From Candidatus Woesearchaeota archaeon (GTDB lineage Archaea > Nanobdellota > Nanobdellia > Woesearchaeales > SKGA01), in the NCBI GenBank assembly GCA_016926395.1, contig JAFGOT010000014.1, forward strand, positions 24,556 through 88,555: DNA of 64,000 bases. The letters are read 5' to 3'. The notes beneath the pieces were generated by a model. It ran no database searches and was not told the origin of the DNA. It saw only the letters and a list, made by a program, of their open reading frames with translations. Positions 4,944-43,145 of this stretch are shown piece by piece (positions within the stretch are counted from its first letter, which is position 1; each line of letters starts with the position of its first letter). A program made the translations under genes and the position numbers.

Positions 4944-7900
4944 ATGAAAAAACTAATTGTGTTAATATTAATGTTCCTTCTTAGTTTGGCGATTGTCAAT
5001 GCAGCTGTTCAAACACCTGAGATTACAACCCCTCTTAATGTAATTCCTTTCACTGTTTTTAGTGCTCAACTGGTTGAATCTGGATTGGTAACGCCCATTA
5101 TAACTGAAGTTGAAAGTCCAAAATTAGGATATGGTCCAGTTGGTGCTGTAGTTGATGATTTTTATGTTAATAATATTGCATTTTCAATAACTGATTTATT
5201 ATCTTCAGGATTTGTGTCGATGGAAGTTTATGAAAACGAAATAATTCTAAAAACATCTGATTCAAAATCTCTAACTTTAATTAGTCACACTCAAAAACCA
5301 ATAAAAATATCTAACTTTCAAGGTTTTGGAGATTTTACGCTTGGTGAAAAAACATTTGGTTTAAAGTCCGGAGTAACTAACATATTAGTTGACGTGTTTG
5401 ATGAAAATAAGTTTGTAACTTTAGTTGTTGATAAAGATAAGAATATTTATGCGATGCCTTTAGAACTTTCTAAATCTATTTATTTAGGTGAAGCATTAAA
5501 ACAAGGTGAATATTATTTTATTAATATATTTGTGGATGAAAAGTATTCGTTTAAGACAAAATCAGAAGATATCTTAGCTGATCCAACAAATTCTTCTAGT
5601 CTTTTGAATTATTACTTTGCTTTCAAAAGTTCTTTTGAAAATGAGAATGCAGGCGAATATATGTCAACAGTTCCTTTTCTAAAATCAGATGGAACTGTTT
5701 TTGGTTTTGCAAATGGAAACAAAAAAATAAATAATGAACTAGTAATCTCATCTGATGGGGGGAATAAACCTGATTATGTTTTTAATCCAATAGATAAATC
5801 TGTTTATTTGATTGAAGATAATTATCCAACTTCAATATTTGCTGTGAAATTTCCTGATGGTGTAGATTCTAAAGCATCTCTAATTGATGTTAGTGATAAC
5901 AATTATTATTTAGCACAACTAGAAACAAACGTACAAAAAGAAGAGGGCTATACTTTTAGTCCAAGACTAACATTACAATTTTCTAATTTTCCAGGAGTGG
6001 AAATGTTAAGTGCGTCATTTGTAAGAGAAAAAGATGGAAAATTATACAATGATCCTTACTCTTCATGGAAAGGGGAATTCTGTGAGAATCAAGTAGAGTT
6101 AAAAAATAAAGCAGTATCTTCAATAGGTGTAACTTACTTAGCAAATGAGTGTGAAGGTTCAATATTTAGTTTGACTCCCTCCAACACAATAGAAAACGGC
6201 GATTTAACGAGTTCTCTAAGAGATAAAAAAACTGAAACTATTGCTTTTGGAAGCAGTGCATTTAGATTATTAAGATATGACTTATTGTCTTTTCAAAAAG
6301 GAGTAGTTAAACATGAACCGATGGGTTTTACAAAACCTCTTCTTGTCTGGGGAGCTCCTGATAAAATATTAACATATTATGATGGTGCTGGAAACTTAGC
6401 TTGTTTAGTGGTTCCTCCAATGAGAAGTTCTGTTATGAAACTAACGGGAAAGGGAGGACAACTTGATACTAGTTCAAAAGTTCCTGTTGTATTAGCATTT
6501 TCACAAGATGCAGTAAAAGTGTGTTCAAGTAAAAAAATTGTAGATGACTTAATTAGTGTTGGTTATAGTGTAGATATAAAAGATTCAAGATCTTTGCCTT
6601 ATGTTTCTTATAGTTTAACATCAGAAACACTAAACCCAAACAATATTCCTGCAATAGATACTTCTGTTAAACAAGCATCAACAAAATTAAATGAATTGAT
6701 GTTAAAACAACAACTACCAATAGTTCTTGTGAAAGAAAATTTTGAAATTACTCCTTTATCAGGTCCAATTTATATTGAAACCACTCTTAATGGCTTTGAT
6801 GGGGTAATAAATACTATTACTGATCCTAAGGTTGTTAAAGAGCTTAACAAAGAAAAAACAACTGGTGAAACAGGAAATATACTAAATGATTTTAAACAAA
6901 AAAATCCTGATGTAGTTAACTATTTTAATCAAAAGGAAGAACCTATTGTAAATCAAAATTCTAATAATAAAAAAGAAGATTTATCCGATAAAGAAGTTGT
7001 AAAAGAAAAAACTGAAGAATTCAAAAAACCAAAAAATGAAGAAGCATCAACAAAAGAAAAATACACTCAAGCATCTAATGTTATAACTTCTTCTCTTCCA
7101 GGAAATAGTGTTAATTTAAATGATGGTTTAAATAAACTCTTAAACGATCCTGCTTTGTTTTCTGATATTAATAAAATGGCGGATTTGCTTGGTTTGCTTG
7201 AATCAACAAATAACGAACAAAAAATAAAAACTGCTACGATAGATGAAAACACTAATGTAATAACTAATGGAAAAAATGTTGTAGTCTCAAAAAAAGTAAA
7301 ATCCAAACAAGAAATGATAAATGATCAACACAAAGAAATACTTACTAATGTTGCTAATAAACGAGGTGTTGATTACGAAGTTGTAAGAAAGGAATGGAAA
7401 GAAGGAAAAATTAATGCTTTTGATTTGAAAGGTGATGATGTTTATGATAATTACAAAAATGATGTTAAACAATTAAACGATATTGTGAATGAAAATTATG
7501 AAGAAGTAGAAGCAGAAGTGGATAATTATGTTCAAAGAACAGAACGTGAAAAAGTAATTCCAATCCAAGCGAGAGGAAATGCTCTTGTTGTAGCTTATGT
7601 TTCCGAAAATGAAGCGAAAAAACACGGGGCTAATTTTGCTTTTGAACTTGAAAACATGATTAATCTAATAAAAAAAGCAAATGATTTGAATATTCCTGTG
7701 TTTATTATTGAACAAGAATCTCAGAATGTAACTATCAAAAATGACGGCAAAAATAAAGTCGTGCAATGGCAAGAATTTGATGTTCTAAAAGAAATAAATG
7801 CTTTAATGGTTCCTGAAACATGGACTTTTGTAAGTTCTAAAAACGATGTTGGTTCCATATTTGATAATTCAAATCTTGGAGAATTATTAAAAGAAAACAA

Positions 7901-8972
7901 CATTGATACTATTACTTTAGCTGGTTGGGATCAACAATTTGCACTAAGAGAAACAATAATTGACGCTAAAGAAAAAGGCTATAGAATATTTACTAGTTTT
8001 GATATCATACAAGGTTCAATAATTGGTGAACAAGAAAAAGTACGAGATCGAAAAGAAAAACAAAGATGGGAAGATAGTCAGCTAACACCTTTTGAAAAAG
8101 GAACGAGTGAATATGTTTCTGTTAATAAAGGAAAAACATTATTTAAAACAATAGACAGTGATGCAAGAAACGGAAACACAGGAGAAATAGTGGAGAGATA
8201 CAGTCCTGAGTCATTACTTAAATTTTATGAACAAAATACTAACTTAGTTGATTCATACAAGCAAATTCCTTTCTACTCTTTAGAACCAACTTATGAAGAT
8301 GTTGTAATAAGAGAAGAGAAAATAAAACCAAAAACTTCAAGCACAACAACGGCTGCTGACAAACCAACTCCAAAAGTTGATGAAAAAGAAGTTTTAAAAC
8401 AAAAACAAGACTTAATACGTCAAGAACAAGAGAAAAATCTAAAGAAAATAAAAATTCAAAGAGACTTGATGACAGAAAGAATTGAAGCAGTATGTTATGG
8501 TTATGAATTAAAGGGAATTGGTAAAAACCAAATAGCTGTTCAAGCATATCCTGATTTTAGTTCGGACCCAAAAATAGAACGAGAATGTGATAATTGGAAA
8601 TCAATAAACGGTGGTCGAAGAAGTGTTAGTGATGTTCCTTCTAATTTGCAATATGCTGGTTATGATGCTGATTTAGCAGAATGGAACTCTTTACTAGCTG
8701 AACGAGATAATTTGATGAAACAAGCAAGGGATCCTTCTAAAGTTTTAGCTTATACTGATGGCGACTATGAAATTATTGAATGTACTTGCAGTCCAACTGG
8801 AAAATGTTCTTATCCAAGCAATCTTTTGGGAGTGACTTGCGAGACTTGTTGCGCTTCCGGAGACCAATTTGGTGATTATAAAATTATAGAATGTACTTGT
8901 GCTTCAGGAAGTAAATGTTCTTATCCAAGCAATTTACTTGGTGGCTCATGTGAAAAATGCTGCAAAGCATAA
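4944..8972 (+). CDS. large secreted surface protein (1342 aa) with C-terminal tandem Cys-rich repeat
   Basis: Sec-type signal MKKLIVLILMFLLSLAIVNA; Asn/Lys-rich; ends with two ~30-aa modules IIECTC..KCSYPSNLLG..CE.CC; starts 2 nt after the pilin-like gene. Confidence 0.6.
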   Translation: MKKLIVLILMFLLSLAIVNAAVQTPEITTPLNVIPFTVFSAQLVESGLVTPIITEVESPKLGYGPVGAVVDDFYVNNIAFSITDLLSSGFVSMEVYENEIILKTSDSKSLTLISHTQKPIKISNFQGFGDFTLGEKTFGLKSGVTNILVDVFDENKFVTLVVDKDKNIYAMPLELSKSIYLGEALKQGEYYFINIFVDEKYSFKTKSEDILADPTNSSSLLNYYFAFKSSFENENAGEYMSTVPFLKSDGTVFGFANGNKKINNELVISSDGGNKPDYVFNPIDKSVYLIEDNYPTSIFAVKFPDGVDSKASLIDVSDNNYYLAQLETNVQKEEGYTFSPRLTLQFSNFPGVEMLSASFVREKDGKLYNDPYSSWKGEFCENQVELKNKAVSSIGVTYLANECEGSIFSLTPSNTIENGDLTSSLRDKKTETIAFGSSAFRLLRYDLLSFQKGVVKHEPMGFTKPLLVWGAPDKILTYYDGAGNLACLVVPPMRSSVMKLTGKGGQLDTSSKVPVVLAFSQDAVKVCSSKKIVDDLISVGYSVDIKDSRSLPYVSYSLTSETLNPNNIPAIDTSVKQASTKLNELMLKQQLPIVLVKENFEITPLSGPIYIETTLNGFDGVINTITDPKVVKELNKEKTTGETGNILNDFKQKNPDVVNYFNQKEEPIVNQNSNNKKEDLSDKEVVKEKTEEFKKPKNEEASTKEKYTQASNVITSSLPGNSVNLNDGLNKLLNDPALFSDINKMADLLGLLESTNNEQKIKTATIDENTNVITNGKNVVVSKKVKSKQEMINDQHKEILTNVANKRGVDYEVVRKEWKEGKINAFDLKGDDVYDNYKNDVKQLNDIVNENYEEVEAEVDNYVQRTEREKVIPIQARGNALVVAYVSENEAKKHGANFAFELENMINLIKKANDLNIPVFIIEQESQNVTIKNDGKNKVVQWQEFDVLKEINALMVPETWTFVSSKNDVGSIFDNSNLGELLKENNIDTITLAGWDQQFALRETIIDAKEKGYRIFTSFDIIQGSIIGEQEKVRDRKEKQRWEDSQLTPFEKGTSEYVSVNKGKTLFKTIDSDARNGNTGEIVERYSPESLLKFYEQNTNLVDSYKQIPFYSLEPTYEDVVIREEKIKPKTSSTTTAADKPTPKVDEKEVLKQKQDLIRQEQEKNLKKIKIQRDLMTERIEAVCYGYELKGIGKNQIAVQAYPDFSSDPKIERECDNWKSINGGRRSVSDVPSNLQYAGYDADLAEWNSLLAERDNLMKQARDPSKVLAYTDGDYEIIECTCSPTGKCSYPSNLLGVTCETCCASGDQFGDYKIIECTCASGSKCSYPSNLLGGSCEKCCKA
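8763..8969 (+). repeat. tandem direct repeat (~100 nt period) encoding duplicated Cys-rich module
   Basis: attgaatgtacttg...aaatgttcttatccaagcaat occurs twice in the nucleotide sequence. Confidence 0.7.
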
Positions 8973-21545: not shown

Positions 21546-22469
21546 TTAATTAAGAACAGAATTTATCGCATCAAATAACTCTTCTTGATTCTTTGCGTCA
21601 TTAAGCATCAAACGTGCTTTTGATCCTCCTTCTATTCCTTTAGTGACGTGCTGTGCCTGAAGCTTTTGATGAAGAAAAGGAATGTCGTATTCTTTTGCCA
21701 ACTCAAGATAGCGTTTGAAAAGAACAGATCTCTTTTGATTTGTAAGAGGTTCATAATTGCCATTAGATAAAAAATCTTTAACTTGAGAAAACAAATAAGG
21801 ATTACCTGAAGCGCCTCGACCAATTGCAACACCTGAAATATAATCTTTATCAAGTCTTTGTTTTGCAATCTCTGGAGAATTAATATCACCATTACCAATA
21901 ATAGGAATAGAAACTTCTTTAGCAACATTTTTTATGACTTCCCAATCTGCAAGACCACTGTAACCTTGCTTTTGAGTTCGACCATGAATTGTAATAAATG
22001 ACGCGCCTGCTTTTTCAAGTTCTTTTGAAACAACTAATGCTTTGTCTGGCTTGTCAATACCTAAACGAATTTTAGCACTCACAGGAATTGAAACAGAATC
22101 AACAATTTCTCTAACGATTTCTCCGGCCAGTTTTGGATTTCCTGTTAATTCACAACCGGCACCAACATCCATAACTTTAGTTACTGGGCAACCCATATTA
22201 ACATCAATAATATTACATTTACTTTCAACAAGACTTGCAGCTTTAGTCATTGAATCAGGTTTAGAACCAAAAAGTTGGATAGCAAAATTATTTTCATTAC
22301 TAGCTTTTATTATTTGTTTCCAAGAATTTTCTTGATGACGAATTAAACCTTCTGCACTAGTTAATTCACTAACAGTCATATCTGCTCCATTCTCAACACA
22401 AAGAGAACGAAAAGCAACATCTGTAATACGTGCCATTGGTGCGAGATTAACTTTATACTTAAAAGCCAT
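21546..22469 (-). CDS. dus: tRNA-dihydrouridine synthase
   Basis: LAPMARITD N-terminus, FMN TIM-barrel pattern, catalytic-Cys region NMGCP. Confidence 0.85.
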   Translation of the reverse strand: MAFKYKVNLAPMARITDVAFRSLCVENGADMTVSELTSAEGLIRHQENSWKQIIKASNENNFAIQLFGSKPDSMTKAASLVESKCNIIDVNMGCPVTKVMDVGAGCELTGNPKLAGEIVREIVDSVSIPVSAKIRLGIDKPDKALVVSKELEKAGASFITIHGRTQKQGYSGLADWEVIKNVAKEVSIPIIGNGDINSPEIAKQRLDKDYISGVAIGRGASGNPYLFSQVKDFLSNGNYEPLTNQKRSVLFKRYLELAKEYDIPFLHQKLQAQHVTKGIEGGSKARLMLNDAKNQEELFDAINSVLN

Positions 22470-23801: not shown

Positions 23802-24095
23802 GTGAGTAAAAAACGAGGTCGTTTACAAATAATTTATGACATATTACAGGCAGTTCGAGCTAAAGGCGGAACTATAAAACCAACTCACTTATTATACAAA
23901 TCAAACTTATCTCATCAAATGATGGGTGAATACTTAAAAGAATTAATGGGGAAAAACTTCATAAAAGAAGAAGTGGGACCTAAAGGAAAATCAAAAGTTT
24001 ATGTTCTAGCACCAAAAGGTTATGACTATCTAACTGAATACAAAACAGTAACTAGATTTGTAGAATCATTTGGATTAGAAGATGAAGAAGTTTAA
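23802..24095 (+). CDS. small winged-helix DNA-binding protein
   Basis: Basic N-terminus and helix pattern IIYDILQAVRAKGGTIKPTHLLYKSNLS typical of archaeal wHTH regulators. Confidence 0.45.
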   Translation: MSKKRGRLQIIYDILQAVRAKGGTIKPTHLLYKSNLSHQMMGEYLKELMGKNFIKEEVGPKGKSKVYVLAPKGYDYLTEYKTVTRFVESFGLEDEEV

Positions 24096-26092
24096 ACCAT
24101 AACAACATCGTGTTCTGATTTTATACCATAAATAAATACATAATTCCAAAATATTCCTTTCCATCGACCAATTTTTACAGCAAAACCTGCACGACGAAAT
24201 TCTGCTCTTAGTTGATCAAGGTTATTAGACCAAGAAGAGTTAGGAATAAAACCAAAGAAGTCACTGAATTCAACAAAACAAATTTCTCCATGTTCAGGAA
24301 GGGTTTGAGCCATATCTTTTAAGACTAGATGAATATTTTGAATATAATCAAGAGAACCGATTGAAATGATAGCATCAACTTCGTGAATACTTGGATGAAG
24401 ACGACTAATAAGATGTTCATCATGGATTGGTTCAATATTTACTATTCCTTTTTTCTTAGCACGCTTCTTGATAATTTCAACATTTCCTTCGGATAAATCA
24501 ACAGGAATAACTTTACCTTGAGGGCCAACAACATTTGCTAAGTCAAGACTTAAAGTTCCAACAGTAGCATGAAAATCAACAACTGTCTTGCCATGTAAAT
24601 CTTTAAACTCTCCAATAATTTTTTTACGAAGACTTCTTGGAAGATTATACTCCTCAAAGAAAACCGCGAATCGAGCAAAACGATTATTCATTTTTCTAGT
24701 CGCTTCAGGATTATAAAATAAAATAAGCAATACGTAAACAGGAATACCAACAGCAATTAAACTAACTGCTTTCCAAATAAGATGAACTTCTCCAGTCAAA
24801 CGCATATATGAGAAAATAAGTAACCCAAAGATACCAACAAGAATAAACGGTCCAATACTTCCAAAAGGGAGTTTGAAAGGACGTTCAAGTTCTACATACT
24901 TTTTTCTAAAAATAGGGATGGTTATCATTGTCAAACTAAGAACCACAAGAACCAAAAGTAAGAAAACTTCATGAATTAATTTGTATGGATCATGATGATG
25001 TCTCATGTATAAAAAAAACATGAAAGCAGTAAAAATGGAGATTGCTATGCTTTGAAATAAAATACTTCGGTGAGGGGTTTTGAATTTTTTGTGAAGCTCT
25101 GTAAAACTTTCAAGTAAAAGACGGTCTCTTGCTAAACTTCTAAGAAGGTTAGGACCGATGAAAATCCAGACTAGAGCGGGTGTGATAATCATAAATGCAG
25201 TGCCTAAAAATAGTGCTTGCTGAGCTATAGTTCCGTGCCAAAGAGTACTTAGAATATCTTTGTGAGGTATTAGGGCTGAAGAATATTTATTAATTGGAAA
25301 CATACCAATAGAACCAATAACGTAGATTAAAGTGGTTACTGCTGCAACTGATAGTGCTGCTATGATTGCTTTAGGAATGGTTCGTCTAGATTTTGCTTCT
25401 TCTGATAAGAATGTGATAATTTCCATTCCCATAAAGGCCTCAGAAATAATAAATGTTGTAGCAAATAAAATAAGAAGACTAAACCCTGAGGTCTGACCAA
25501 ACAAACTAAAAAAATTACTAACCGCACCAGTTGAACTAAGAGAGATTGCTTCGATATTAAAAAATAACGGAAGAATCTGAAGGACTACTACGGACACTGT
25601 AATTATTGATAGAATGACAAGAACTAACTTGTTTAAAGTTAATCCTCTAAAAACTAGGAAGTTAAGAAGAGCAATGATTGCAATACCAACTGCAAGTTTA
25701 AACAAATAATCCATCATGGTATTTGCAGGATAAAAATATTCTAAAGCCCAAACAACAGCTAAACTAGCACTGATGTTTCCTGCAATCCAAGAAGTCCAAC
25801 CAACAATGAATGCCGTGAAGTGACCGTATGCTTTTTTTGCATAAACATACAGGTCGCCTGCTTTTGGAAACATAGAAACCAGTTCTGCTAACGCCATAGC
25901 AATATAAAGACCAATACCAAAAGTTACAAGCCAAGCAATAAGCGATCTAGCGCCCATCATTTGAACACCAAGACCTGGAAGATATGTTAACGAGCTTGCA
26001 AAAATAGCGTTAAGAGTGATAAGAAAAATAACTCCAAAACCAACTTTTCTTCTAGTTGGCACTCCTTCAACTACGCCCTCGTTTTCAATCAT
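24092..26092 (-). CDS. amino acid/polyamine (APC) permease fused to C-terminal class I SAM-methyltransferase-like domain (motif I degenerate)
   Basis: ~12 TM APC-like N-domain. The C-terminal ~200 aa has a Methyltransf_11-like pattern (VVDFHATVGTLS..., IHDEHLISRLHPSIHEVDAIISIGSL) and is homologous to the C-terminus of 30880-32788. Confidence 0.7.
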   Translation of the reverse strand: MIENEGVVEGVPTRRKVGFGVIFLITLNAIFASSLTYLPGLGVQMMGARSLIAWLVTFGIGLYIAMALAELVSMFPKAGDLYVYAKKAYGHFTAFIVGWTSWIAGNISASLAVVWALEYFYPANTMMDYLFKLAVGIAIIALLNFLVFRGLTLNKLVLVILSIITVSVVVLQILPLFFNIEAISLSSTGAVSNFFSLFGQTSGFSLLILFATTFIISEAFMGMEIITFLSEEAKSRRTIPKAIIAALSVAAVTTLIYVIGSIGMFPINKYSSALIPHKDILSTLWHGTIAQQALFLGTAFMIITPALVWIFIGPNLLRSLARDRLLLESFTELHKKFKTPHRSILFQSIAISIFTAFMFFLYMRHHHDPYKLIHEVFLLLVLVVLSLTMITIPIFRKKYVELERPFKLPFGSIGPFILVGIFGLLIFSYMRLTGEVHLIWKAVSLIAVGIPVYVLLILFYNPEATRKMNNRFARFAVFFEEYNLPRSLRKKIIGEFKDLHGKTVVDFHATVGTLSLDLANVVGPQGKVIPVDLSEGNVEIIKKRAKKKGIVNIEPIHDEHLISRLHPSIHEVDAIISIGSLDYIQNIHLVLKDMAQTLPEHGEICFVEFSDFFGFIPNSSWSNNLDQLRAEFRRAGFAVKIGRWKGIFWNYVFIYGIKSEHDVVMV

Positions 26093-26111: not shown

Positions 26112-27071
26112 ATGAAATCTTTTATTTATAAATACTATGCTAAGAAATATAAGAGAAACCAAATTTTGAACCTTTGTTGGGGACTAAGGGTAACATTTGA
26201 TAGAGAACAAGCAAAAAAAGTCTTAATAAAACCTTTCAAAGAAAAAGGACGGACATTTATTGAAGAAAATGGTGATTTACAATATCCAAGATTGTTTTTT
26301 AACAAATTATCAAAGTCAGAAACTCAAGAAAGATTAACATTACTAACTTATTTCTATGTGTTATTTGATACGCAAAAACAATCAAGATATCACTATAGAG
26401 ATATGCTTAAATTATATGTTGCTGATAATAATTTTCTCACACTAGAAAATATATTGAAAAGAAACCATGAACAAGCTAAAAAATTTGTAACCAATAATTT
26501 AGGGACGATGGCAAAAAAAGGCGTTTATCTTATTGATGGTTACACCCGAATAAAAACCGAGTATGATTCGAACATCATGAATCTTGTTGATAAAGATGTA
26601 GCAATAACACAAAAAAGAATAGAAGCAATGCCAGGATTTGGAGATCAAGTAGCGGGATTGTTCTTACATACTTTACGTGATAATAAAATATTCAAATTTG
26701 AAAATGAGGAAGACTTATGTCCGAAAGTGGATTTTCATGATTATAATTTAGGAGTTTCAACAGGAATAATAAAAGATCTCCATGGAGAAACACCCCAAAC
26801 AAGAAAAACATTATACTCTCAATTTTTAAGAGACTTAGCAAAAGAAGAAAACATAAATATTTTTGATTTGGATTCTTACATGTGGGCAATAGGACAAATA
26901 TGTGTTCAAAAAAATATTTCTCTTTGTGAATATCAATGTCCTTTATCTAGTTTGTATGAAGGACCAAGAACATTCTATCTAAAAAATGATTACAGCGAAA
27001 AAGCAACAACAAAAAAGAATAAAAAAATTGCAGATGAACTACAAGTAAAATTAGGATTTAAGTTTGATTGA
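26112..27071 (+). CDS. hypothetical protein with helix-hairpin-helix motif (possible DNA glycosylase-like)
   Basis: MPGFGDQVAGLFL resembles an HhH L-P-G-[IVF]-G hairpin; otherwise unassigned. Confidence 0.3.
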   Translation: MKSFIYKYYAKKYKRNQILNLCWGLRVTFDREQAKKVLIKPFKEKGRTFIEENGDLQYPRLFFNKLSKSETQERLTLLTYFYVLFDTQKQSRYHYRDMLKLYVADNNFLTLENILKRNHEQAKKFVTNNLGTMAKKGVYLIDGYTRIKTEYDSNIMNLVDKDVAITQKRIEAMPGFGDQVAGLFLHTLRDNKIFKFENEEDLCPKVDFHDYNLGVSTGIIKDLHGETPQTRKTLYSQFLRDLAKEENINIFDLDSYMWAIGQICVQKNISLCEYQCPLSSLYEGPRTFYLKNDYSEKATTKKNKKIADELQVKLGFKFD

Positions 27072-28509: not shown

Positions 28510-28584
28510 TAGCGGAGAGAGGATTTGAACCTCCGACCTCGGGGTTATGAGCCCCGCGAGCACTCCTGACTGCTCCACCCCGCT
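28510..28584 (-). tRNA. initiator tRNA-Met (anticodon CAT)
   Basis: Manual fold gives 7-bp acceptor with A1:U72, D-stem GAGC/GCTC, anticodon stem CGGGG/CCCCG (three consecutive G:C pairs), loop CUCAUAA, T-loop GGTTCAAATCC, discriminator A; no encoded CCA. Confidence 0.8.
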
Positions 28585-30229: not shown

Positions 30230-30769
30230 ATGATGAAAAATATGAAAGGACAAGCAGCTATGGAGTTCTTAATGACCTATGGTTGGGCAATTCTTGTTGT
30301 ACTATTAGCAATTGGTGCTCTAGCAGCATTCGGTGTATTTAATTTAGACAAATACGCAGCATCAACTTCAGGTTTTGAAGGACAAAAAATGGCTGCAGTA
30401 AACGATGGTATGGTAATTAGTTTATCTGGCAATTACGTTGAAATCGCTTTAACAAACCAAGTTGGAACATCTGTAACATTACCTTTAACAGGTACTTTAG
30501 TTCCTGAACCAGGTACTGTTTGTACATTAAATCCTGCTGGTGCTGTTACTGCAACTTACAAAGATCCTGCAACAGGAAACTATACTGCTTTGGATTCAGC
30601 TACTATTCTTAGACAAGGAGATACTTTTGTAGTGCGATGGTCTTGTAATGGTGCAGCAAGTGCATCTCAAGGAGACGCATTCGAAGCAACTTTAACATTC
30701 GATTACATCAACGTTGAAACTGGTCAATCTAGAACAATGACTGGAACAACTAGAGGACGATACGAATAA
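30230..30769 (+). CDS. archaeal type IV pilin-like protein (class III signal peptide), candidate major pilin
   Basis: MMKNMKGQAAMEFLMTYGWAILVVLLAIGALAA is the classic KGQ cleavage site plus hydrophobic helix; small Thr/Gly/Ala-rich beta domain. Confidence 0.7.
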   Translation: MMKNMKGQAAMEFLMTYGWAILVVLLAIGALAAFGVFNLDKYAASTSGFEGQKMAAVNDGMVISLSGNYVEIALTNQVGTSVTLPLTGTLVPEPGTVCTLNPAGAVTATYKDPATGNYTALDSATILRQGDTFVVRWSCNGAASASQGDAFEATLTFDYINVETGQSRTMTGTTRGRYE

Positions 30770-30879
30770 ACCTTAACAGGTTAACTGTGATCAGAAATCT
30801 GTGATCAGTTACTTTTTTTCTTTTTCTTTTTTCTAATTCTTAATAACATTTAAAAATAGGTGATTTGATTTTTGACTTT

Positions 30880-32788
30880 ATGGAAGAAGGAGCACAATTA
30901 TCATTTCCAGTAATATTGCTAATCACAATAAATAGTATACTGGGGACTGGAATATTTTTTCTTACCTGCAGTAGGTGCTAGAGAGGCAGGTTTGTTTGCT
31001 ATTATTTCTTGGCTTATAATGGGTTTGATTGCTATAATGTATAGTATGGTTTTTGGTGAATTGGTTAGTCGTTATCCAAAAGAAGGTGGTGTTTTTGAAT
31101 ATGCAAAGGAGGCGTTTGGATTCTTCCCTAGTTTTTTGCTTGGTTGGATGACTTTAATTGCAGCTAATGTAACTATTGCAATGCTTATGGTTGGGGCAAT
31201 AAAATATGTCGGTCCAAACTTGAGTAATTTATTCATAGCAGGAATAAGTATTCTATTTATTTTGGCATTTAATTTTGTTGCTTTTAAGGGGTTGAAAACG
31301 GGCAAAGTAATGTTATTAACTTTTGCAGGCATAACATTAGTTGCTGTTTTGGGAATATTAATTCCTGGACTAATAAACTTTAATCCTGCTAATTTCACTA
31401 ATTGGTTATCTCATGAAAGTTTTGCTGGTTTTGGATTTAATGTTTCAGGGTTAGTAGGTGGCTCAGTGATTATTTTTGGAACTATTTTTTTTATTGCAGA
31501 AACTTTTTTCGGTTGGGAAACTGTTACTTTTTTAGCAGAGCAAGTTAAAAACCCAAAAAAAATAATGCCTAATGCATTAGTCAAAGGAACTGTTTTGATT
31601 TCGATTTTTTCATTATTATTCGTGATTGCAAGTAAAAGTATTTTACATTGGAGTGTTTTAGCAAATTCTTCAACTCCTTTAGCTGATCTTGCAAGTGCTG
31701 TTTATGGACCTGCAATGATTCCTGTGTACAGCATCTTAGTTTATCTAGCGATAATTGGTAGTGTGGCGGGGTGGATAGTTGCGGCTCCAAATCTACTTGT
31801 AGCTTTGGCAAAAGATAAATTATTTATTCCTTCTTTTGCAAAAAAGCACCCTAAAACAGGAACTCCTTACAAAGCAATATTATTTCAAACAATTGTAACT
31901 TCTGTATTGGTAATAATTGGAGCTGGAAGTTATGAAACTCTTCTTCACTTATTAGTTCCTTTAGTTTTGGTTTTATATGGCAGTGTTGTCTTAAGTTTAT
32001 TATATATTAGAAAGAAAAACAAAGAGTTTGATGGATATAAAGCTCCTGGTGGTTTAGTATTGCCCATTTTTCTTTTACTATTCACTTTAGCTTTGGTTTT
32101 GATGTGGGGTTTTCAAGAGCATAATGCTATAGAAACTGTTGAAGTATTAATCACTTTTCTAGTTTTAGGAATTCCTGTATTTTTGTTGATGAATTTCCAT
32201 CACAATCCTCATGCAAGTGTTACTTTTCAGAATAAAACAGTTGGACTTTCGAAATTTCTGGAAAGGTTATTTTTGCCTAAAAAAATACGAGTTAGACTTC
32301 TTGAAAAAATGGAGAATCACCACAAGGTGTTGTTTTTAGGGGCCGGATCTGGAATTTTAATAAAAGAATCTTCTATTCCCAAAGAGAACATAATTGTGAT
32401 TGAACATTCTGAAAGTTTAGCTAATCATTTAAAAAACCGTTTTCCGACAATAGCGGTTATTCATGATGAACACGCAGTATCAAGATTACACCCTGACATA
32501 AAAAAAGCTGATGTTGTTGTTAGTGTAGGGATGCTTGCTCATATACAAAGTTTATCGATGCATCTAAAACAGTTACATAATATCCTTCCAGAGAATGCTT
32601 TGATACGTTTTTTTGACTATTCAAAATTTTATAAAGTAATATCTAATAATATTCCCGAAATTGATGAGCTAAAGAAAGTTTTTAGAGAAAACGGATTTTC
32701 AGTTAGGGTTGAAGAAATAAAAGGTATTTTTTGGAATTATTTGATAATAGAAGGCGTTAAAACTGATTTAGATGTTGTTTATATGTGA
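30880..32788 (+). pseudogene. APC permease-SAM methyltransferase fusion (paralog of 24092-26092), frameshifted in T6 run
   Basis: N-terminus MEEGAQLSFPVILLITINSILGTGIFF is in frame 1 from the ATG at 30880; the rest, LPAVGAREAGLFAIISW..., is in frame 2 (ORF-track ORF from TTG 30992). The switch is at tttttt 30955-30960; T5 would restore GIFFLPAVG. C-terminal domain has intact motif I VLFLGAGSG. Confidence 0.7.
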
Positions 32789-32837
32789 TTTTTATTAATC
32801 GTTACTTTTAAATAATCTCTCGCTTCAAAACAATCTA

Positions 32838-33257
32838 ATGAGGAGGGTGAGATCTAGTTCTGGTCAGGTGGCAATGGAGTACTTGATAGTATTCTTGATG
32901 GCTTTTTTTATGACCATGCCTCTTATAATAATCTTTTACACGCAATCAAATAACTTTGAAGACGATATTTCTGTGGCTCAAGCAAATAAATTAACTTCAG
33001 AACTAATCGATGCTGCAGAAGAAGTTTATTTTCTTGGGAGTCCATCTCAAAAAACGGTTGATGTGACGTTTCCAAATGGATTGCAAGAAATAACCATTGA
33101 ATCAAATTCGCTCATATTAAACATGACATCAAAAGGAGATGACTATTTGGTTTATGGAGATACTTTGGTTAATTTAACGGGTATTTTACGAACAAGCCCG
33201 GGAAGAAGACCGGTAAAAGTTGTTGCGACAGGAACTGGAGTTCAAATAACTGATTAA
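32838..33257 (+). CDS. pilin-like protein with class III signal peptide
   Basis: SSGQVAMEYLIVFLMAFFMT. Confidence 0.6.
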   Translation: MRRVRSSSGQVAMEYLIVFLMAFFMTMPLIIIFYTQSNNFEDDISVAQANKLTSELIDAAEEVYFLGSPSQKTVDVTFPNGLQEITIESNSLILNMTSKGDDYLVYGDTLVNLTGILRTSPGRRPVKVVATGTGVQITD

Positions 33258-33287
33258 TGAAATGCTCTTCTTCCAAGTTTTAAGAAA

Positions 33288-33698
33288 ATGATACATACTA
33301 AAAAAGCACAAGTTTCGATAGAATTTATCATTCTTTTAACGATGAGTGTCTTTATGATAATAACTTTTATGATTGCAATAAAACATGTATCTGATCAAAA
33401 ATTATTAAAAAAAACATTAAACGAACTAGATGACTTGGGCAAGAGTGTTCAACAAGAATTGATGCTTGCATCACAATTAAATGATGGTTATGTTCGAGAA
33501 ATATACATTCCAGCAAGGCTTTATGGAGTGGATTATTCTCTAAATACAAGCGCAGTCTCTGGAACGGTGATGTATCTAAATATTTACTACGAAGGTGTTG
33601 AATTATTTTATTTAATTCCCTACATACAAGGAGATGTAAAAACAGGACTTAACACAATATCAAAAAATAACAATACGGTAATGGTATCTCAAACATGA
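33288..33698 (+). CDS. pilin-like protein with class III signal peptide (Ala at -1)
   Basis: TKKAQVSIEFIILLTMSVFMII. Confidence 0.5.
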   Translation: MIHTKKAQVSIEFIILLTMSVFMIITFMIAIKHVSDQKLLKKTLNELDDLGKSVQQELMLASQLNDGYVREIYIPARLYGVDYSLNTSAVSGTVMYLNIYYEGVELFYLIPYIQGDVKTGLNTISKNNNTVMVSQT

Positions 33699-34204
33699 TG
33701 AAACGAAAAGGACAAGTGTTTACACTGGATTTTTTTATTGGCTTATTTGCATTCATTGTATTATTAGTTATAGGTTTTACACAATTATTTTCTTTCTTAC
33801 CAAATTCTGATTTTAAACAATTATATGGTGATGCAACTTATTTATCAAATGTTTTAGTCGATTCAGGTTATCCTACTTATTGGAATTCAACAAACGTTCT
33901 TCTTCCAGGACTCGCTGACAATCATCGATTAAATGTTACTAAATTACACGAGTTCGAAAATATTTCTTATACTAACAGTAAATTATTATTTCATATCACT
34001 TCTGAATATGTTTTCTTTTTCAAGAATCAAACGGATTATTTGAATTTATCAAATTGTACTTATGGCTATCCAATATCTGTTAACATAACTAGTTGTGAGC
34101 CTAATTTATTATCTTTTAATTATAAAAACTTAGTAAAAACTCAAAGACTATTGGCTTATGATGGGAACATTGTGACAATGGTGATTTACACGTGGAAAAG
34201 ATGA
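33695..34204 (+). CDS. pilin-like protein with class III signal peptide
   Basis: MMKRKGQVFTLDFFIGLFAFIVLLVIGF; 4-nt overlap with the previous gene. Confidence 0.6.
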   Translation: MMKRKGQVFTLDFFIGLFAFIVLLVIGFTQLFSFLPNSDFKQLYGDATYLSNVLVDSGYPTYWNSTNVLLPGLADNHRLNVTKLHEFENISYTNSKLLFHITSEYVFFFKNQTDYLNLSNCTYGYPISVNITSCEPNLLSFNYKNLVKTQRLLAYDGNIVTMVIYTWKR

Positions 34205-36873
34205 ATAATAAAGGAATATACTACTCAATGGATGCTTTATTAGCAGGACTTCTATTTGTAGGTGTAATTTTATTATTATTTCAAAACAGTTTTTATGAAC
34301 CAAATACTGATCAACAAAATTTCTTGTCCCAGGATTTATTAGCATCACTTGGATCGATAACTTTAGGAGAATCAAATTATCCGATGATTACTGCAGAATT
34401 ATCTTCAGGGCAATATGTTGATGCTAACAACACCGTACTTGAGCTTATTGGAATTTATTGGGCATTAAATCAAACGCAAAATGCAACAAAGATTATAACT
34501 CGCTTTGTAAATGGAACCGTTCCAGATCAACTTTACTTACAACTAAATCTCGATGGTGATGACTTGTATCCATACCAAAACTCAACAACTCCAACAAACA
34601 TAATTGGTGGGCGGAGAATGATAACTGGAATCGCGCAAGGAAAACCTTTAACTGGTTTTAGTTCTTCAGCATATTTAAAAAAAGTACGAAACAAAAAAAC
34701 ATCTTCTTATGCTTATTTTGGAGGATATTATGCTCAAGGAAATATTTCAACAACACTAAATCTTCCAAGTGACTTTTCATCATCAAGAATAATTTCTGCT
34801 CGAATAAATATTGAAACTCCTGGAACATTTGATTTGCTGATAAATGGCAATGTTTGCTTAAATGACGTAACTGGTTTAACAACAACTGTTACGTCATGGG
34901 ATTTAATAAATTGTAATTCTAGCTTTAAACCAAACAAAAATAATATTTCATTTATTTATTCAAGTGAACTTAATGTATCTGCAATATCTGGTGGTTTAAT
35001 AAAAGTAACATACACAACAGACACCTTAAAAGAAATAATTCCAACAGGGTATAAAAGATATTACTTGCCAGAAATTCAAGGATTCATAAACGTTTATGAC
35101 GCTTTCTCTGCGCAAGGATTAATTGATTCTTGGAATTTGAATATGACTTTTTACAACGAATACGATACTTTTGTGACTATAGGAAATGAAACCATTTTTA
35201 TCGCACCTGGAAGTAATACAACACAAAACATATTTTTCTCAAGAAATAATGCATCCTTGCCACCAACAGAAATTCCACTAAGGGTTGGAACAACAAATCT
35301 TTCAAACATAACAATTGTTCAATCAGGTGATCCATCTGACTCGTTTTTAGTAACTGATGTATCTGGAAGTATGGATGATTGTGGATTATATTATACAGAA
35401 AATGTTACCTATTGTGGTTATGATTATAAATTTTGGTTCTGGTGGACTTACACTGAGTGTCCTTATACAGGATCATGTGTTTCAAATGAATGTGGAGGAT
35501 CTACAACGACTCAAAACCATGTTATTTATGATAAAACAGTTTCAACTTGTAACAAAACTTTGATGGAGTTAGCAAAAGAAGCTGATGATTTATTTGTTGA
35601 TGTGGTTCTTGGAAACTCAACGTTAAATGAAATTGGATTGATAGATTTTTCAACTAATGCTAATACTCCAACTGATCTTACAAACATTCCAGGTGTATTG
35701 CACAGCGAAATATCAACTTATTCTGCAGGAGGAAATACTTGTACTTGTTGTGGTATAAATAGAGCAAAAGATTTGCTTTTATCTTCAGATGATGATAAGT
35801 TTATGGTTGTACTAAGTGATGGAGAGCCAACCGCTTACTGTAATGGATTTAGTGATTATACTGGTTCAACTGGAGATAACACTCAGGCAAGAAATGATGC
35901 TATTGCGTCTGGACAAGAAGCTTGTGCAAATAACATAACTGTTTATACAATTGGATTTGGAGAGGGAATGTCTGCTCAAGGACATGATATAATGAGACAA
36001 ATAGCTTGTAATGATTCATTATATTATAATGCTTCTAATGCTGGAGACTTAGCAGAAATTTATGAAAATATTTCTCAAGATATTTTAGTTGCAGCAAATT
36101 ATTCATCACAAACAATAAACATAGTTGGAAATTTTACAATCGCAAATTTATCAAAAGATTCATACATTGATTTGTACTACACACCTATTGTCCAAGAAGA
36201 TAATCAAGGTAAATTATCGATGGTGTTTGAATCAGCTCCATTTGGTGGTTGCACATCGTCTGTAAGCATACCAGGAGGGGTGTTAATTGAGGATGCATAT
36301 GTAACCTCTTTCTCAAGTAATCATTGGACGAAAAAATTAGATGTAAATGGTATTAATGTATTTAATTTATCGGAGTATGGATCTGATTATACTTTACTTG
36401 GGGATCCTTTCATCATACAAGTTCCATCTGCAGTTTTAATTCCTGGAGCAACGAATAACTTTACACTTGAAGTTGGCGATAACCCTGTTAACATTTCAAG
36501 TTGTTCACCAAATAATACTTTTATCTACACTGCTTTAATTAATGCTTCAACACCGCGAGGAGAAACTTATGAAGAACATGAAGGTTGTACTTGGATTGTA
36601 GAATCTGAAACAGGAAAAAATTCCACTATAAAAATTCCTAAAGATTATTCAGGTCCAAATAATTGTTCGTATACTTCCGCAAGCATTAGTTATAATGTAT
36701 TAGATGCATACGACTCTGCGACTCACTTCTTATTATCGCAATTAGATCCTGACAATAATGGAAAAATAATTGTTGACTTAGCAGAATCAGATTTAGAAAT
36801 AACAATAACTTTGGTTAGTGGAATTCCATATCTTTGGGGTCCCACTCTTGTAGGAACTCAAGTAGGTAGTTAA
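34192..36873 (+). CDS. large pilin-like protein (893 aa) with von Willebrand factor A domain, candidate pilus adhesin
   Basis: N-terminal NNKGIYYSMDALLAGLLFVGVILLLF class III-like signal; MIDAS motif LVTDVSGSMDD (DxSxS) near aa 390; many N-x-S/T sites; Cys-rich segment. Confidence 0.6.
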   Translation: MEKMNNKGIYYSMDALLAGLLFVGVILLLFQNSFYEPNTDQQNFLSQDLLASLGSITLGESNYPMITAELSSGQYVDANNTVLELIGIYWALNQTQNATKIITRFVNGTVPDQLYLQLNLDGDDLYPYQNSTTPTNIIGGRRMITGIAQGKPLTGFSSSAYLKKVRNKKTSSYAYFGGYYAQGNISTTLNLPSDFSSSRIISARINIETPGTFDLLINGNVCLNDVTGLTTTVTSWDLINCNSSFKPNKNNISFIYSSELNVSAISGGLIKVTYTTDTLKEIIPTGYKRYYLPEIQGFINVYDAFSAQGLIDSWNLNMTFYNEYDTFVTIGNETIFIAPGSNTTQNIFFSRNNASLPPTEIPLRVGTTNLSNITIVQSGDPSDSFLVTDVSGSMDDCGLYYTENVTYCGYDYKFWFWWTYTECPYTGSCVSNECGGSTTTQNHVIYDKTVSTCNKTLMELAKEADDLFVDVVLGNSTLNEIGLIDFSTNANTPTDLTNIPGVLHSEISTYSAGGNTCTCCGINRAKDLLLSSDDDKFMVVLSDGEPTAYCNGFSDYTGSTGDNTQARNDAIASGQEACANNITVYTIGFGEGMSAQGHDIMRQIACNDSLYYNASNAGDLAEIYENISQDILVAANYSSQTINIVGNFTIANLSKDSYIDLYYTPIVQEDNQGKLSMVFESAPFGGCTSSVSIPGGVLIEDAYVTSFSSNHWTKKLDVNGINVFNLSEYGSDYTLLGDPFIIQVPSAVLIPGATNNFTLEVGDNPVNISSCSPNNTFIYTALINASTPRGETYEEHEGCTWIVESETGKNSTIKIPKDYSGPNNCSYTSASISYNVLDAYDSATHFLLSQLDPDNNGKIIVDLAESDLEITITLVSGIPYLWGPTLVGTQVGS

Positions 36874-43063: not shown

Positions 43064-43145
43064 GCTGCGGTCGCATAGTCTGGTATTGCGCAGGATTGCT
43101 AATCCTGTCCTTTTAGGATCGAGTGTTCAAATCCCTCCCGCAGCG
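43064..43145 (+). tRNA. tRNA-Ser (anticodon GCT), class II with 13-nt variable arm
   Basis: Manual fold gives acceptor GCTGCGG/CCGCAGC, 3-bp D-stem GCA/TGC, anticodon stem CAGGA/TCCTG, loop TTGCTAA, variable arm TCCTTTTAGGATC, T-loop TTCAAAT, and T-stem GAGTG/CCCTC with one U-C mismatch; CC encoded after discriminator G. Confidence 0.7.

Follow-up and report, generated by a model that had tools for sequence, protein, structure and literature searches.

A DPANN family of permeases with a fused C-terminal methyltransferase-fold domain, represented by two paralogues on one Woesearchaeota contig

The DNA analysed here, hereafter the window, is a stretch of 64,000 nucleotides from a Candidatus Woesearchaeota archaeon (NCBI GenBank assembly GCA_016926395.1, contig JAFGOT010000014.1, positions 24,556 to 88,555 of the forward strand), a region of low G+C content (approximately 0.30-0.34 in 2-kb windows). 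It carries two related genes, copy 1 at 24092..26092 on the reverse strand and copy 2 at 30880-32788 on the forward strand, and in both an APC permease is followed by a C-terminal domain with the class I fold of S-adenosylmethionine (SAM)-dependent methyltransferases; a third copy was not found in the window. Each half is a member of a known superfamily, APC/AA_permease_2 for the permease and the class I methyltransferase fold for the C-domain, and it is their combination that is uncharacterised. An earlier annotation made by a model from the letters of the DNA, which we call the sequence-only reading, was aware of no characterised example, and we likewise found no description of a permease-methyltransferase fusion in the literature, including a survey of archaeal fusion proteins (PMC11237513).

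Copy 1 is an intact open reading frame of 666 amino acids, assigned to the fusion on the basis of the reading frame, Pfam and AlphaFold, and the very same protein is deposited at NCBI as P0002 ('amino acid permease [Candidatus Woesearchaeota archaeon]'), which is recorded on two contigs. Residues 1-460 (24713..26092, reverse strand) form a permease domain with the 12-helix APC/LeuT fold, as indicated by Pfam, Foldseek and a sequence match in the PDB, with AA_permease_2 (PF13520) matching residues 23-430 at an E-value of 1.5e-27 (97 bits vs a cut-off of 27). The substrate-site segment of transmembrane helix 1 (TM1), LNAIFASSLTYLPG (25973..26014, reverse strand), reads A-S-S where G-[ST]-G is usual, and the corresponding motif in transmembrane helix 6 (TM6) is FMGME. 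Residues 461-666 plus the stop codon (24092..24712, reverse strand) encode linker helices and the methyltransferase-fold domain, according to Pfam, secondary structure and Foldseek. Within this part, residues 487-612 score above the cut-offs of Ubie_methyltran (33.3 vs 20.1), Methyltransf_31 (32.7 vs 27) and Methyltransf_25 (31.7 vs 27), and the family C-domain profile (A2) is matched over positions 1-207 with 318 bits. Motif I, D-F-H-A-T-V-G (24557..24577, reverse strand), has histidine in place of the first glycine and threonine in place of the second; the acidic residue after strand 2 is kept (D532, in VDLS).

The true start of copy 2 is the ATG at 30880, whereas the mechanically called open reading frame (30992-32788, forward strand, 598 amino acids) begins at a TTG. 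The 27 N-terminal codons (30880..30960, forward strand; MEEGAQLSFPVILLITINSILGTGIFF) are out of frame with the remainder, and the frame changes at a T6 homopolymer (30955..30960, forward strand) that is one base too long. The main frame (LPAVGAREAG..., 30962..32788, forward strand) holds the remaining permease and the C-terminal methyltransferase-fold domain. Removal of one base yields a protein of 635 amino acids in which TM1 is whole (...INSILGTGIFFLPAVGA...), orthologues being 634-641 amino acids long, and the corrected junction reproduces the clade consensus ...GTGIFFLPAvG. Judged from the sequence, the extra T could be either an error of assembly in the homopolymer or the sign of a genuine pseudogene. 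The NCBI annotation at this position, P0188, is a seemingly intact 'amino acid permease' of 618 amino acids that misses both the frameshift and the first transmembrane segment. AA_permease_2 matches copy 2 with an E-value of 4.5e-34 (118.5 bits vs 27), and the permease motifs are GTG in TM1, upstream of the frameshift, and FFGWE in TM6. The linker and methyltransferase-fold domain (32201..32788, forward strand) is recognised by the family profile (A2, positions 1-207, 231 bits) and, marginally, by Methyltransf_23 (29.1 vs a cut-off of 27). Its motif I, F-L-G-A-G-S-G (32333..32353, forward strand), retains the glycine triad and has lost the acidic residue, while the acidic residue after strand 2 is present as glutamate (in IEHS). 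The triad of copy 2 is workable, but the gene as assembled is split by a one-base frameshift.

The AlphaFold model of the complete copy 1 protein has a predicted local distance difference test score (pLDDT) of 92.5 and a predicted TM-score (pTM) of 0.90, and the C-domain modelled in isolation reaches a pLDDT of 93.4. In the model, three linker helices (residues 462-494) follow straight after the twelfth transmembrane helix and lead into a seven-strand core of approximately 165 residues, for which DSSP gives the strands b1 503-507, b2 527-532, b4 574-578, b5 603-610, b6 637-645 and b7 650-658, with helices between them. The pTM of the full-length model implies that the module would be docked on the permease in a fixed manner. 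Since both termini of a 12-helix APC permease are cytoplasmic, the methyltransferase-fold domain is expected on the cytoplasmic face.

Foldseek searches of the PDB with the C-domain returned more than 1200 matches at E<1e-3, the best being 3dh0 (3.3e-14). Among the top 50, query TM-scores range from 0.55 to 0.73, and all entries with a stated function are SAM methyltransferases or methyltransferase-fold proteins; the structural neighbours include UbiG, NovO/CouO, ArsM, RebM and Coq5, and the nearest solved relatives by sequence are the plant phosphoethanolamine N-methyltransferases 5wp5/5wp4, 3mgg and 3dh0. For the permease domain, BasC, LAT1, AdiC and GkApcT are the best structural matches (target TM-scores 0.78-0.82) and BasC (6f2g) the best PDB match by sequence (E 2.9e-11). 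Neither half can be given a subfamily name. In NCBIfam the named APC subfamilies (TIGR00909 2A0306, APA TIGR00905, LAT TIGR00911, BcaP, AdiC, PotE and others) all score far under their cut-offs, the best match being TIGR00909 with 119.7 bits vs 556.8, and the methyltransferase equivalogs MenG (28.9 vs 235), UbiG (25 vs 103), ArsM (28.2 vs 263), BioC (21.4 vs 185) and PmtA (19.8 vs 250) were rejected.

Copy 1 and copy 2 align colinearly over 619 residues with 30% identity (E 1e-83), across both domains and up to the shared C-terminal ...KGIFWNY..I.G.K, and are thus paralogues, as the sequence-only reading had proposed; by this degree of divergence they appear to be old. The architecture that it had described, an APC permease with a C-terminal class I SAM-methyltransferase fold in both copies, is borne out by Pfam matches above cut-off, AlphaFold and Foldseek, and the two motif I strings it quoted, DFHATVG and FLGAGSG, stand at the coordinates given above. 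Far from a non-Rossmann fold, the C-domain is confidently predicted to adopt the seven-strand, Rossmann-like fold of methyltransferases, and both copies retain the ribose-binding acidic residue. Two of its details need adjustment. Methyltransferase models are indeed matched, but the Methyltransf_11 pattern it had named is not the best of them, since copy 1 scores exactly at the cut-off (21.2) and copy 2 below it (15.4). Likewise, a C-domain of approximately 170 amino acids agrees with the core, but the whole soluble part, including the three linker helices, comprises approximately 205.

We define the family as single polypeptides of approximately 600-700 amino acids in which the C-domain profile is matched end to end after an APC-fold domain of approximately 430-500 amino acids. 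Both copies qualify, and at least 193 full-length fusions were collected and aligned. A search with full-length copy 1 found 13 more fusions (28-75% identity, 618-748 amino acids), the two with an organism name being Nanobdellota, and an exhaustive search of 1.84 billion representatives with the C-domain profile gave 96 matches at E<=1e-30 (counted as 50%-identity representatives), most of which are 600-700 amino acids long and carry the domain at approximately residues 430-640. With copy 2 as query, 563 clusters were obtained at E<=1e-20; the best 120 of these 563 are mostly proteins of 580-694 amino acids with permease and methyltransferase Pfam matches, the exceptions being two partial entries and approximately 30 close relatives of copy 2 without a precomputed methyltransferase match. 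The full-length alignment of clade A (see below) retrieved 7 fusion loci among species representatives, and a word-index search with the C-domain alone one fragment only. A stand-alone form of the C-domain is not claimed, as the short profile matches that resembled one are mostly fragments that start within the permease, and P0100 (1535 amino acids) was removed from the family, being a repeat protein with 27 short matches to positions 34-60 of the C-domain profile and a spuriously high score. In P0062 (853 amino acids), P0070, P0075 and P0102, approximately 200 additional amino acids extend beyond the methyltransferase domain, with a DUF3108 match in P0062 (E 3.5e-7).

The fusion is hence not rare: hundreds of such proteins are present in public databases, and all named sources are DPANN, namely Woesearchaeota, Nanoarchaeota/Nanobdellota, 'DPANN group' and, for the most distant members, Aenigmatarchaeota. 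The source annotations read 'amino acid permease' or 'APA family antiporter', and a few automatic names at JGI 'amino acid transporter/phospholipid N-methyltransferase'. The family is thus already in the databases, uncharacterised and under-annotated, and so far found in DPANN only. Three loci (L005, L006 and L008; 34-36% GC) come from metagenome-assembled genomes (MAGs) titled 'uncultured Methanosarcinales archaeon' and encode clade A fusions 47-51% identical to copy 1; these titles are probably placeholders or mistaken taxonomy for DPANN bins.

Three clades within the alignment are relevant to the window. In clade C (n=81) both halves are canonical, with INSIMGTGIFFLPA in TM1, FFGWET in TM6, LEyGxGVGT as motif I and ATD after strand 2. 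Clade B (n=36, including copy 2) has canonical permease motifs, again with INSIMGTGIFFLPA in TM1, and a C-domain that evolves faster, copy 2 and its clade B orthologues sharing 75-85% identity in the permease and 57-59% in the methyltransferase domain. Most members of this clade have LELGASSG as motif I, and the subclade of copy 2 has VLFLGAGSG; we take these variants to resemble the GAASG-type motif of fibrillarin and FtsJ enzymes, and for this reason they need not be inactive. Clade A (n=10, including copy 1) has a diverged permease with LNAIFASSLTYLPG in TM1 of all members and FMGME in TM6, and a methyltransferase domain near that of clade C, as copy 1 and P0226 share 52% identity in this domain against 34% in the permease. 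In the window, clades A and B share one contig. Elsewhere, the longest contig listed is 783,848 bp for P0009 (A) as well as for P0201 (B), and a 77,236-bp contig is listed for both L011 (A) and P0199 (B).

Against this background, the architecture might be suspected to be a decaying or artefactual fusion, produced by mis-assembly or a mis-called gene or retaining a dead relic domain, given that copy 2 is frameshifted in the assembly, that copy 1 lacks the key glycine of motif I and that the C-domains of clade B change faster than their permeases. However, the fusion recurs as a single open reading frame in hundreds of independent assemblies (NCBI, JGI, ENA and Logan), the C-domain is conserved and modelled with a pLDDT above 92, and the frame of copy 1 is uninterrupted and its product the same as a protein found on two contigs. 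We therefore regard decay or artefact as very improbable, and for the family as a whole this explanation is largely refuted.

The SAM pocket is conserved across the family. In the 193 fusions, the acidic residue two positions before the first glycine of motif I is present in 174, the first glycine in 185 and the third in 188, whereas the second position is shared between glycine (95) and serine (65); an acidic residue follows strand 2 in 173 and occupies motif III in 165. The resulting consensus is E-x-G-x-[GS]-x-G, and the classical [DE]-x-G-x-G-x-G is matched by neither copy 1 nor copy 2. Motif I of copy 1 had already been called degenerate in the sequence-only reading, and the alignment agrees, since histidine at the first glycine is found in 2 of 193 members, namely copy 1 and P0003, to which it is most closely related. 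This makes copy 1 a lineage-specific exception, in which canonical SAM binding is probably impaired or altered. Its C-domain nevertheless appears to be under selection, because the methyltransferase core is nearly as conserved between copy 1 and P0003 as the permease (73% vs 77% identity), and such constraint despite the histidine points to a structural or regulatory role.

Residues off the pocket are equally conserved, namely E480, R564, H566, S577, [ED]608-[YF]609, P617-N618, W649, Y651 and K658, and the polar and aromatic set further includes R489, F612/F613 and W621. In the class I methyltransferase fold, acceptor sites lie at the N-terminal helices, in the loops that follow strands 4 and 5 and at the strand 6-7 hairpin. 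Going by the pattern of conservation, these residues could form either a methyl-acceptor site or the surface with which the module docks on the permease. In the majority of the family, and in clade C above all, the module may have retained catalytic activity.

These observations bring up the possibility of transport-coupled methylation, in which the solute brought in or exchanged by the permease would be amino-acid-like or an amine, and the tethered methyltransferase would methylate or use it at the cytoplasmic exit. The logic would be that of metabolic trapping or of precursor/product coupling, by analogy with AdiC-AdiA, GadC-GadB, bacteriocin ABC exporters with a fused processing peptidase, and vectorial acylation. 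Such a function would fit the family-wide conservation of the SAM pocket and the presence of the conserved polar and aromatic set at positions where acceptor sites lie in this fold. It would also fit the nearest solved relatives by sequence, which are small-molecule methyltransferases, the Foldseek neighbours listed above, the retention of the amino-acid-binding motifs GTG (TM1) and FFGWE (TM6) in clades B and C, and the fact that BasC and LAT1, the nearest permease structures, are exchangers. On the other hand, proteinogenic amino acids would presumably be useless as nutrients once methylated, and the copy 1 domain is conserved although the key glycine of its SAM pocket is lost. Taken together with the module exchange described next, this leads us to consider transport-coupled methylation possible, though less likely than not, and a close rival of the reading that we prefer.

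The two halves of the fusion have not always travelled together. In a Nanobdellota MAG (L009), two fusion genes stand in tandem on the forward strand (4977-6986 and approximately 6991-8964), and their permease halves are 30% identical and show no DNA similarity, whereas between the linker and methyltransferase halves identity is 86% at the protein level and, over 636 bp, 83% at the DNA level. The similarity begins at the junction of the twelfth transmembrane helix and the linker, which was the cut point used for the comparison, with nothing significant upstream, and the pair looks like the outcome of gene conversion or a module swap. Furthermore, P0013 (701 amino acids, on a 172,744-bp contig) combines a permease of clade A (65% identity to P0012) with a C-domain of clade B (81% to P0203) and would be either a natural chimera or an assembly chimera between paralogues. 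Each paralogue has its own copy of the module. A module that is swapped among paralogues with dissimilar permease halves is portable and not tied to one permease specificity, and from these sequences it looks generic rather than cargo-specific. The occurrence of an 86%-identical module on 30%-identical permeases, and its exchange between clades, are a poor fit to cargo-specific chemistry and thus speak against the coupling of methylation to transport.

A generic module on differing permeases would also suit a substrate other than the cargo. One could hence imagine a membrane-anchored methyltransferase that acts on the head group of a membrane lipid, on a quinone-like compound or on a membrane protein, with the APC half as an anchor, delivery or flipping device comparable to MprF. 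Six deep lineages (P0104, P0105, P0111, P0113, P0119 and P0125) can be cited in its favour. In phmmer comparisons their membrane half is still recognised as a homologue of the APC domain (E 1e-8 to 1e-19), but the G-x-G of TM1 and the G-W-E of TM6 are gone (replaced, for example, by ISS...PF and FxPFTF) and the Pfam permease match is lost, whereas the methyltransferase motifs are still canonical. The best resemblances of the C-domain in Pfam and NCBIfam, among them UbiE/MenG, cyclopropane-fatty-acyl-phospholipid synthase and phospholipid N-methyltransferase with scores far under the family cut-offs, and the phospholipid N-methyltransferase in the automatic JGI name of some members point in the same direction. 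However, the substrate-site motifs of the permease are conserved to at least 85% in the two largest clades (117 of 193 fusions), and in the main cluster conservation is higher in the permease half (55%) than in the methyltransferase half (41%), which indicates that transport is under selection. In addition, the NCBIfam scores reach approximately one tenth of the equivalog cut-offs, and there is no clear need for every permease paralogue to bear its own anchored enzyme. A membrane-anchored methyltransferase therefore seems unlikely to us.

The cargo itself could also be the methyl donor. The permease would then be a SAM importer or an exchanger of SAM and S-adenosylhomocysteine (SAH), or carry a related sulfonium amino acid, and the fused domain would receive or sense the imported methyl donor. 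SAM bears an alpha-amino-acid moiety, and APC-family carriers of SAM and S-methylmethionine exist, namely yeast Sam3 and Mmp1 and MmuP of E. coli. The nearest permease structures are obligate exchangers, and DPANN cells generally rely on partners for many metabolites. NCBIfam further detects a weak likeness to the S-methylmethionine permease (E 4.5e-5), but with 22.6 bits against a cut-off of 716 this score is far too low to constitute a specific similarity to the known SAM or S-methylmethionine carriers, and it is unlikely that SAM is the cargo of every one of several paralogues whose permease halves differ so greatly. As such, we judge this explanation to be quite improbable.

The surroundings of the two genes were compared with those of their orthologues. 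Next to copy 1 lie a winged-helix gene, unannotated open reading frames and a dihydrouridine synthase (Dus) gene. The winged-helix protein (97 amino acids; HTH_45, E 1.9e-16; 23802-24095, forward strand) is encoded convergently, the 3' ends of its coding region and that of copy 1 sharing 4 nt. On the other side, a divergent open reading frame of 319 amino acids without a Pfam match (26112-27071) is separated from the start of copy 1 by a gap of 19 nt, so that any promoters must overlap or fall inside coding sequence. A Dus gene is found approximately 1.6-3 kb from a fusion gene both in the window (21546-22469, reverse strand) and at the P0014 locus (L003:2193-3137), which is probably coincidence or residual synteny. 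A conserved neighbourhood of the copy 1 orthologues was not found, and their contexts differ among the loci compared.

Copy 2 lies inside a row of genes for products with an N-terminal archaeal signal peptide of class III (type IV pilin-like; 30230-36873, forward strand), the members of which are located at 30230-30769, 32838-33257, 33288-33698, 33695-34204 and 34192-36873 (893 amino acids), all on the forward strand. An operon of copy 2 with these pilin-like genes was rejected, as the orthologues P0192, P0193 and P0201 stand in unrelated contexts and copy 2 has a TATA-like element of its own. This element, TTTAAAAATA (30849..30858, forward strand), is read from the sequence 22-31 nt upstream of the ATG and is preceded by a T-rich tract that follows the upstream pilin-like gene; it suggests that copy 2 may have its own promoter. 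The neighbours at the L001 locus resemble the pilin-like genes in appearance but are not homologous to them. With respect to riboswitches or other known RNA elements near either copy, the Rfam matches in the window are two tRNA genes only (28510-28584, reverse strand, and 43064-43145, forward strand). For neither copy did the orthologue loci compared reveal conserved neighbour genes that would hint at a pathway, which is a further point against methylation coupled to transport.

In our opinion, the preferred reading, to which we would assign a probability of roughly 40%, is SAM/SAH-dependent control of transport by the C-terminal module. The module would bind SAM and/or SAH and serve as a generic, interchangeable cytoplasmic control unit on the permease, the activity of which would be set according to methyl-donor or methionine status. 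This reading is favoured because the module is interchangeable among very different permeases, is present as a separate copy in each paralogue and has a conserved pocket, because the copy 1 domain is constrained despite its damaged pocket, and because C-terminal cytosolic domains of secondary transporters are usually regulatory. By analogy, the module would parallel the nucleotide-binding domains, Rossmann-type or C-terminal, by which other secondary transporters are gated, such as RCK/KTN, the c-di-AMP domain of KimA and the C-domains of cation-chloride cotransporters, as well as SAMTOR. Several considerations weigh against SAM/SAH-dependent control, however. We know of no SAM-gated secondary transporter of such a kind, and a methyltransferase domain with intact motifs is usually an enzyme. 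The conserved residues off the pocket look like an acceptor site, and may serve as one instead of docking the module on the permease, and the six deep lineages make the methyltransferase look like the constant, primary part of the protein.

If the module indeed senses SAM or SAH, it would represent a new mode of gating a secondary transporter, whereas catalysis on the cargo would amount to a new kind of transport-coupled chemistry. One could even speculate about a true transport-enzyme machine, in which the docked methyltransferase acts on the solute leaving the cytoplasmic gate or receives SAM imported by the permease, as a nutrient-capture device peculiar to host-dependent DPANN cells. To our knowledge, no APC-family carrier with a built-in enzyme that acts on, or is fed by, its cargo was known earlier, so that the fusion would be the first, and we consider this scenario doubtful. 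DPANN archaea, whose genomes are very small, live at the expense of partner cells, and the acquisition and management of amino acids and methyl donors are therefore central to their biology. In either case, the annotation 'amino acid permease' conceals half of the protein. The family is large and confidently modelled, and natural variants are at hand in the glycine-to-histidine replacement of copy 1, the swapped modules and the remodelled substrate sites of the permeases.

Among known systems, the membrane half of the fusion is closest to APC transporters of the LAT/ApcT/AdiC type (BasC 6f2g, GkApcT 5oqt, AdiC 3ncy and LAT1), with which it shares the 12-helix LeuT fold and AA_permease_2 and, in the case of copy 2, the substrate-site motifs G-T-G in TM1, encoded upstream of the frameshift, and F-F-G-W-E in TM6. 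The sequence similarity is, however, approximately 20% (E ~1e-11), the clade of copy 1 has A-S-S instead of G-x-G, and the transporters compared are without a methyltransferase-fold domain. The soluble half shares with small-molecule class I methyltransferases (3dh0, 3mgg, UbiG, Coq5/UbiE, phosphoethanolamine N-methyltransferases and ArsM) the seven-strand Rossmann-like fold with N-terminal helices and, across the family, motif I and the acidic residues after strand 2 and in motif III. It differs from them in that the identity is 13-20%, in that it is always tethered to a polytopic membrane domain and in motifs of its own, namely IHDEH..R.HP, DFF..IPN..W and WNY..I.G.K, and copy 1 differs further in the histidine at the first glycine of motif I.

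In overall layout, the fusion resembles KimA, NKCC1 and KCC3, all of which are among the structural matches of the full-length model and in which a cytoplasmic alpha/beta domain likewise stands C-terminal to a membrane domain of the APC/LeuT fold. In KimA and the cation-chloride cotransporters this cytoplasmic domain is regulatory. However, its fold is unrelated to that of the DPANN module, it binds c-di-AMP or ATP instead of SAM, and the structural match covers the membrane domain only (root-mean-square deviation of 13-17 Å for the whole alignment). SAMTOR, a soluble eukaryotic protein with a methyltransferase fold that senses SAM without catalysis, and the Rossmann-type RCK/KTN domains, the ligands of which on K+ transporters are NAD(H), ATP or Ca2+, would share with the fusion the concept only, an enzyme-like Rossmann fold as a ligand sensor.

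Membrane proteins with a built-in enzyme have precedents as well. In bacteria, 'fused MFS/spermidine synthase' proteins join a transporter-like domain to a cytoplasmic enzyme of the class I methyltransferase-type fold, and MprF joins a polytopic flippase/translocator to a cytoplasmic lipid-modifying enzyme. Both differ from the fusion in membrane fold and chemistry. Lastly, the coupling of an APC carrier to a cytoplasmic enzyme that acts on its cargo is familiar from AdiC-AdiA, GadC-GadB, PotE-SpeF and MmuP-MmuM. There, however, the enzyme, a decarboxylase or a Zn-dependent homocysteine methyltransferase, is a separate protein encoded by an adjacent gene, whereas the two domains of the DPANN proteins are covalently fused.

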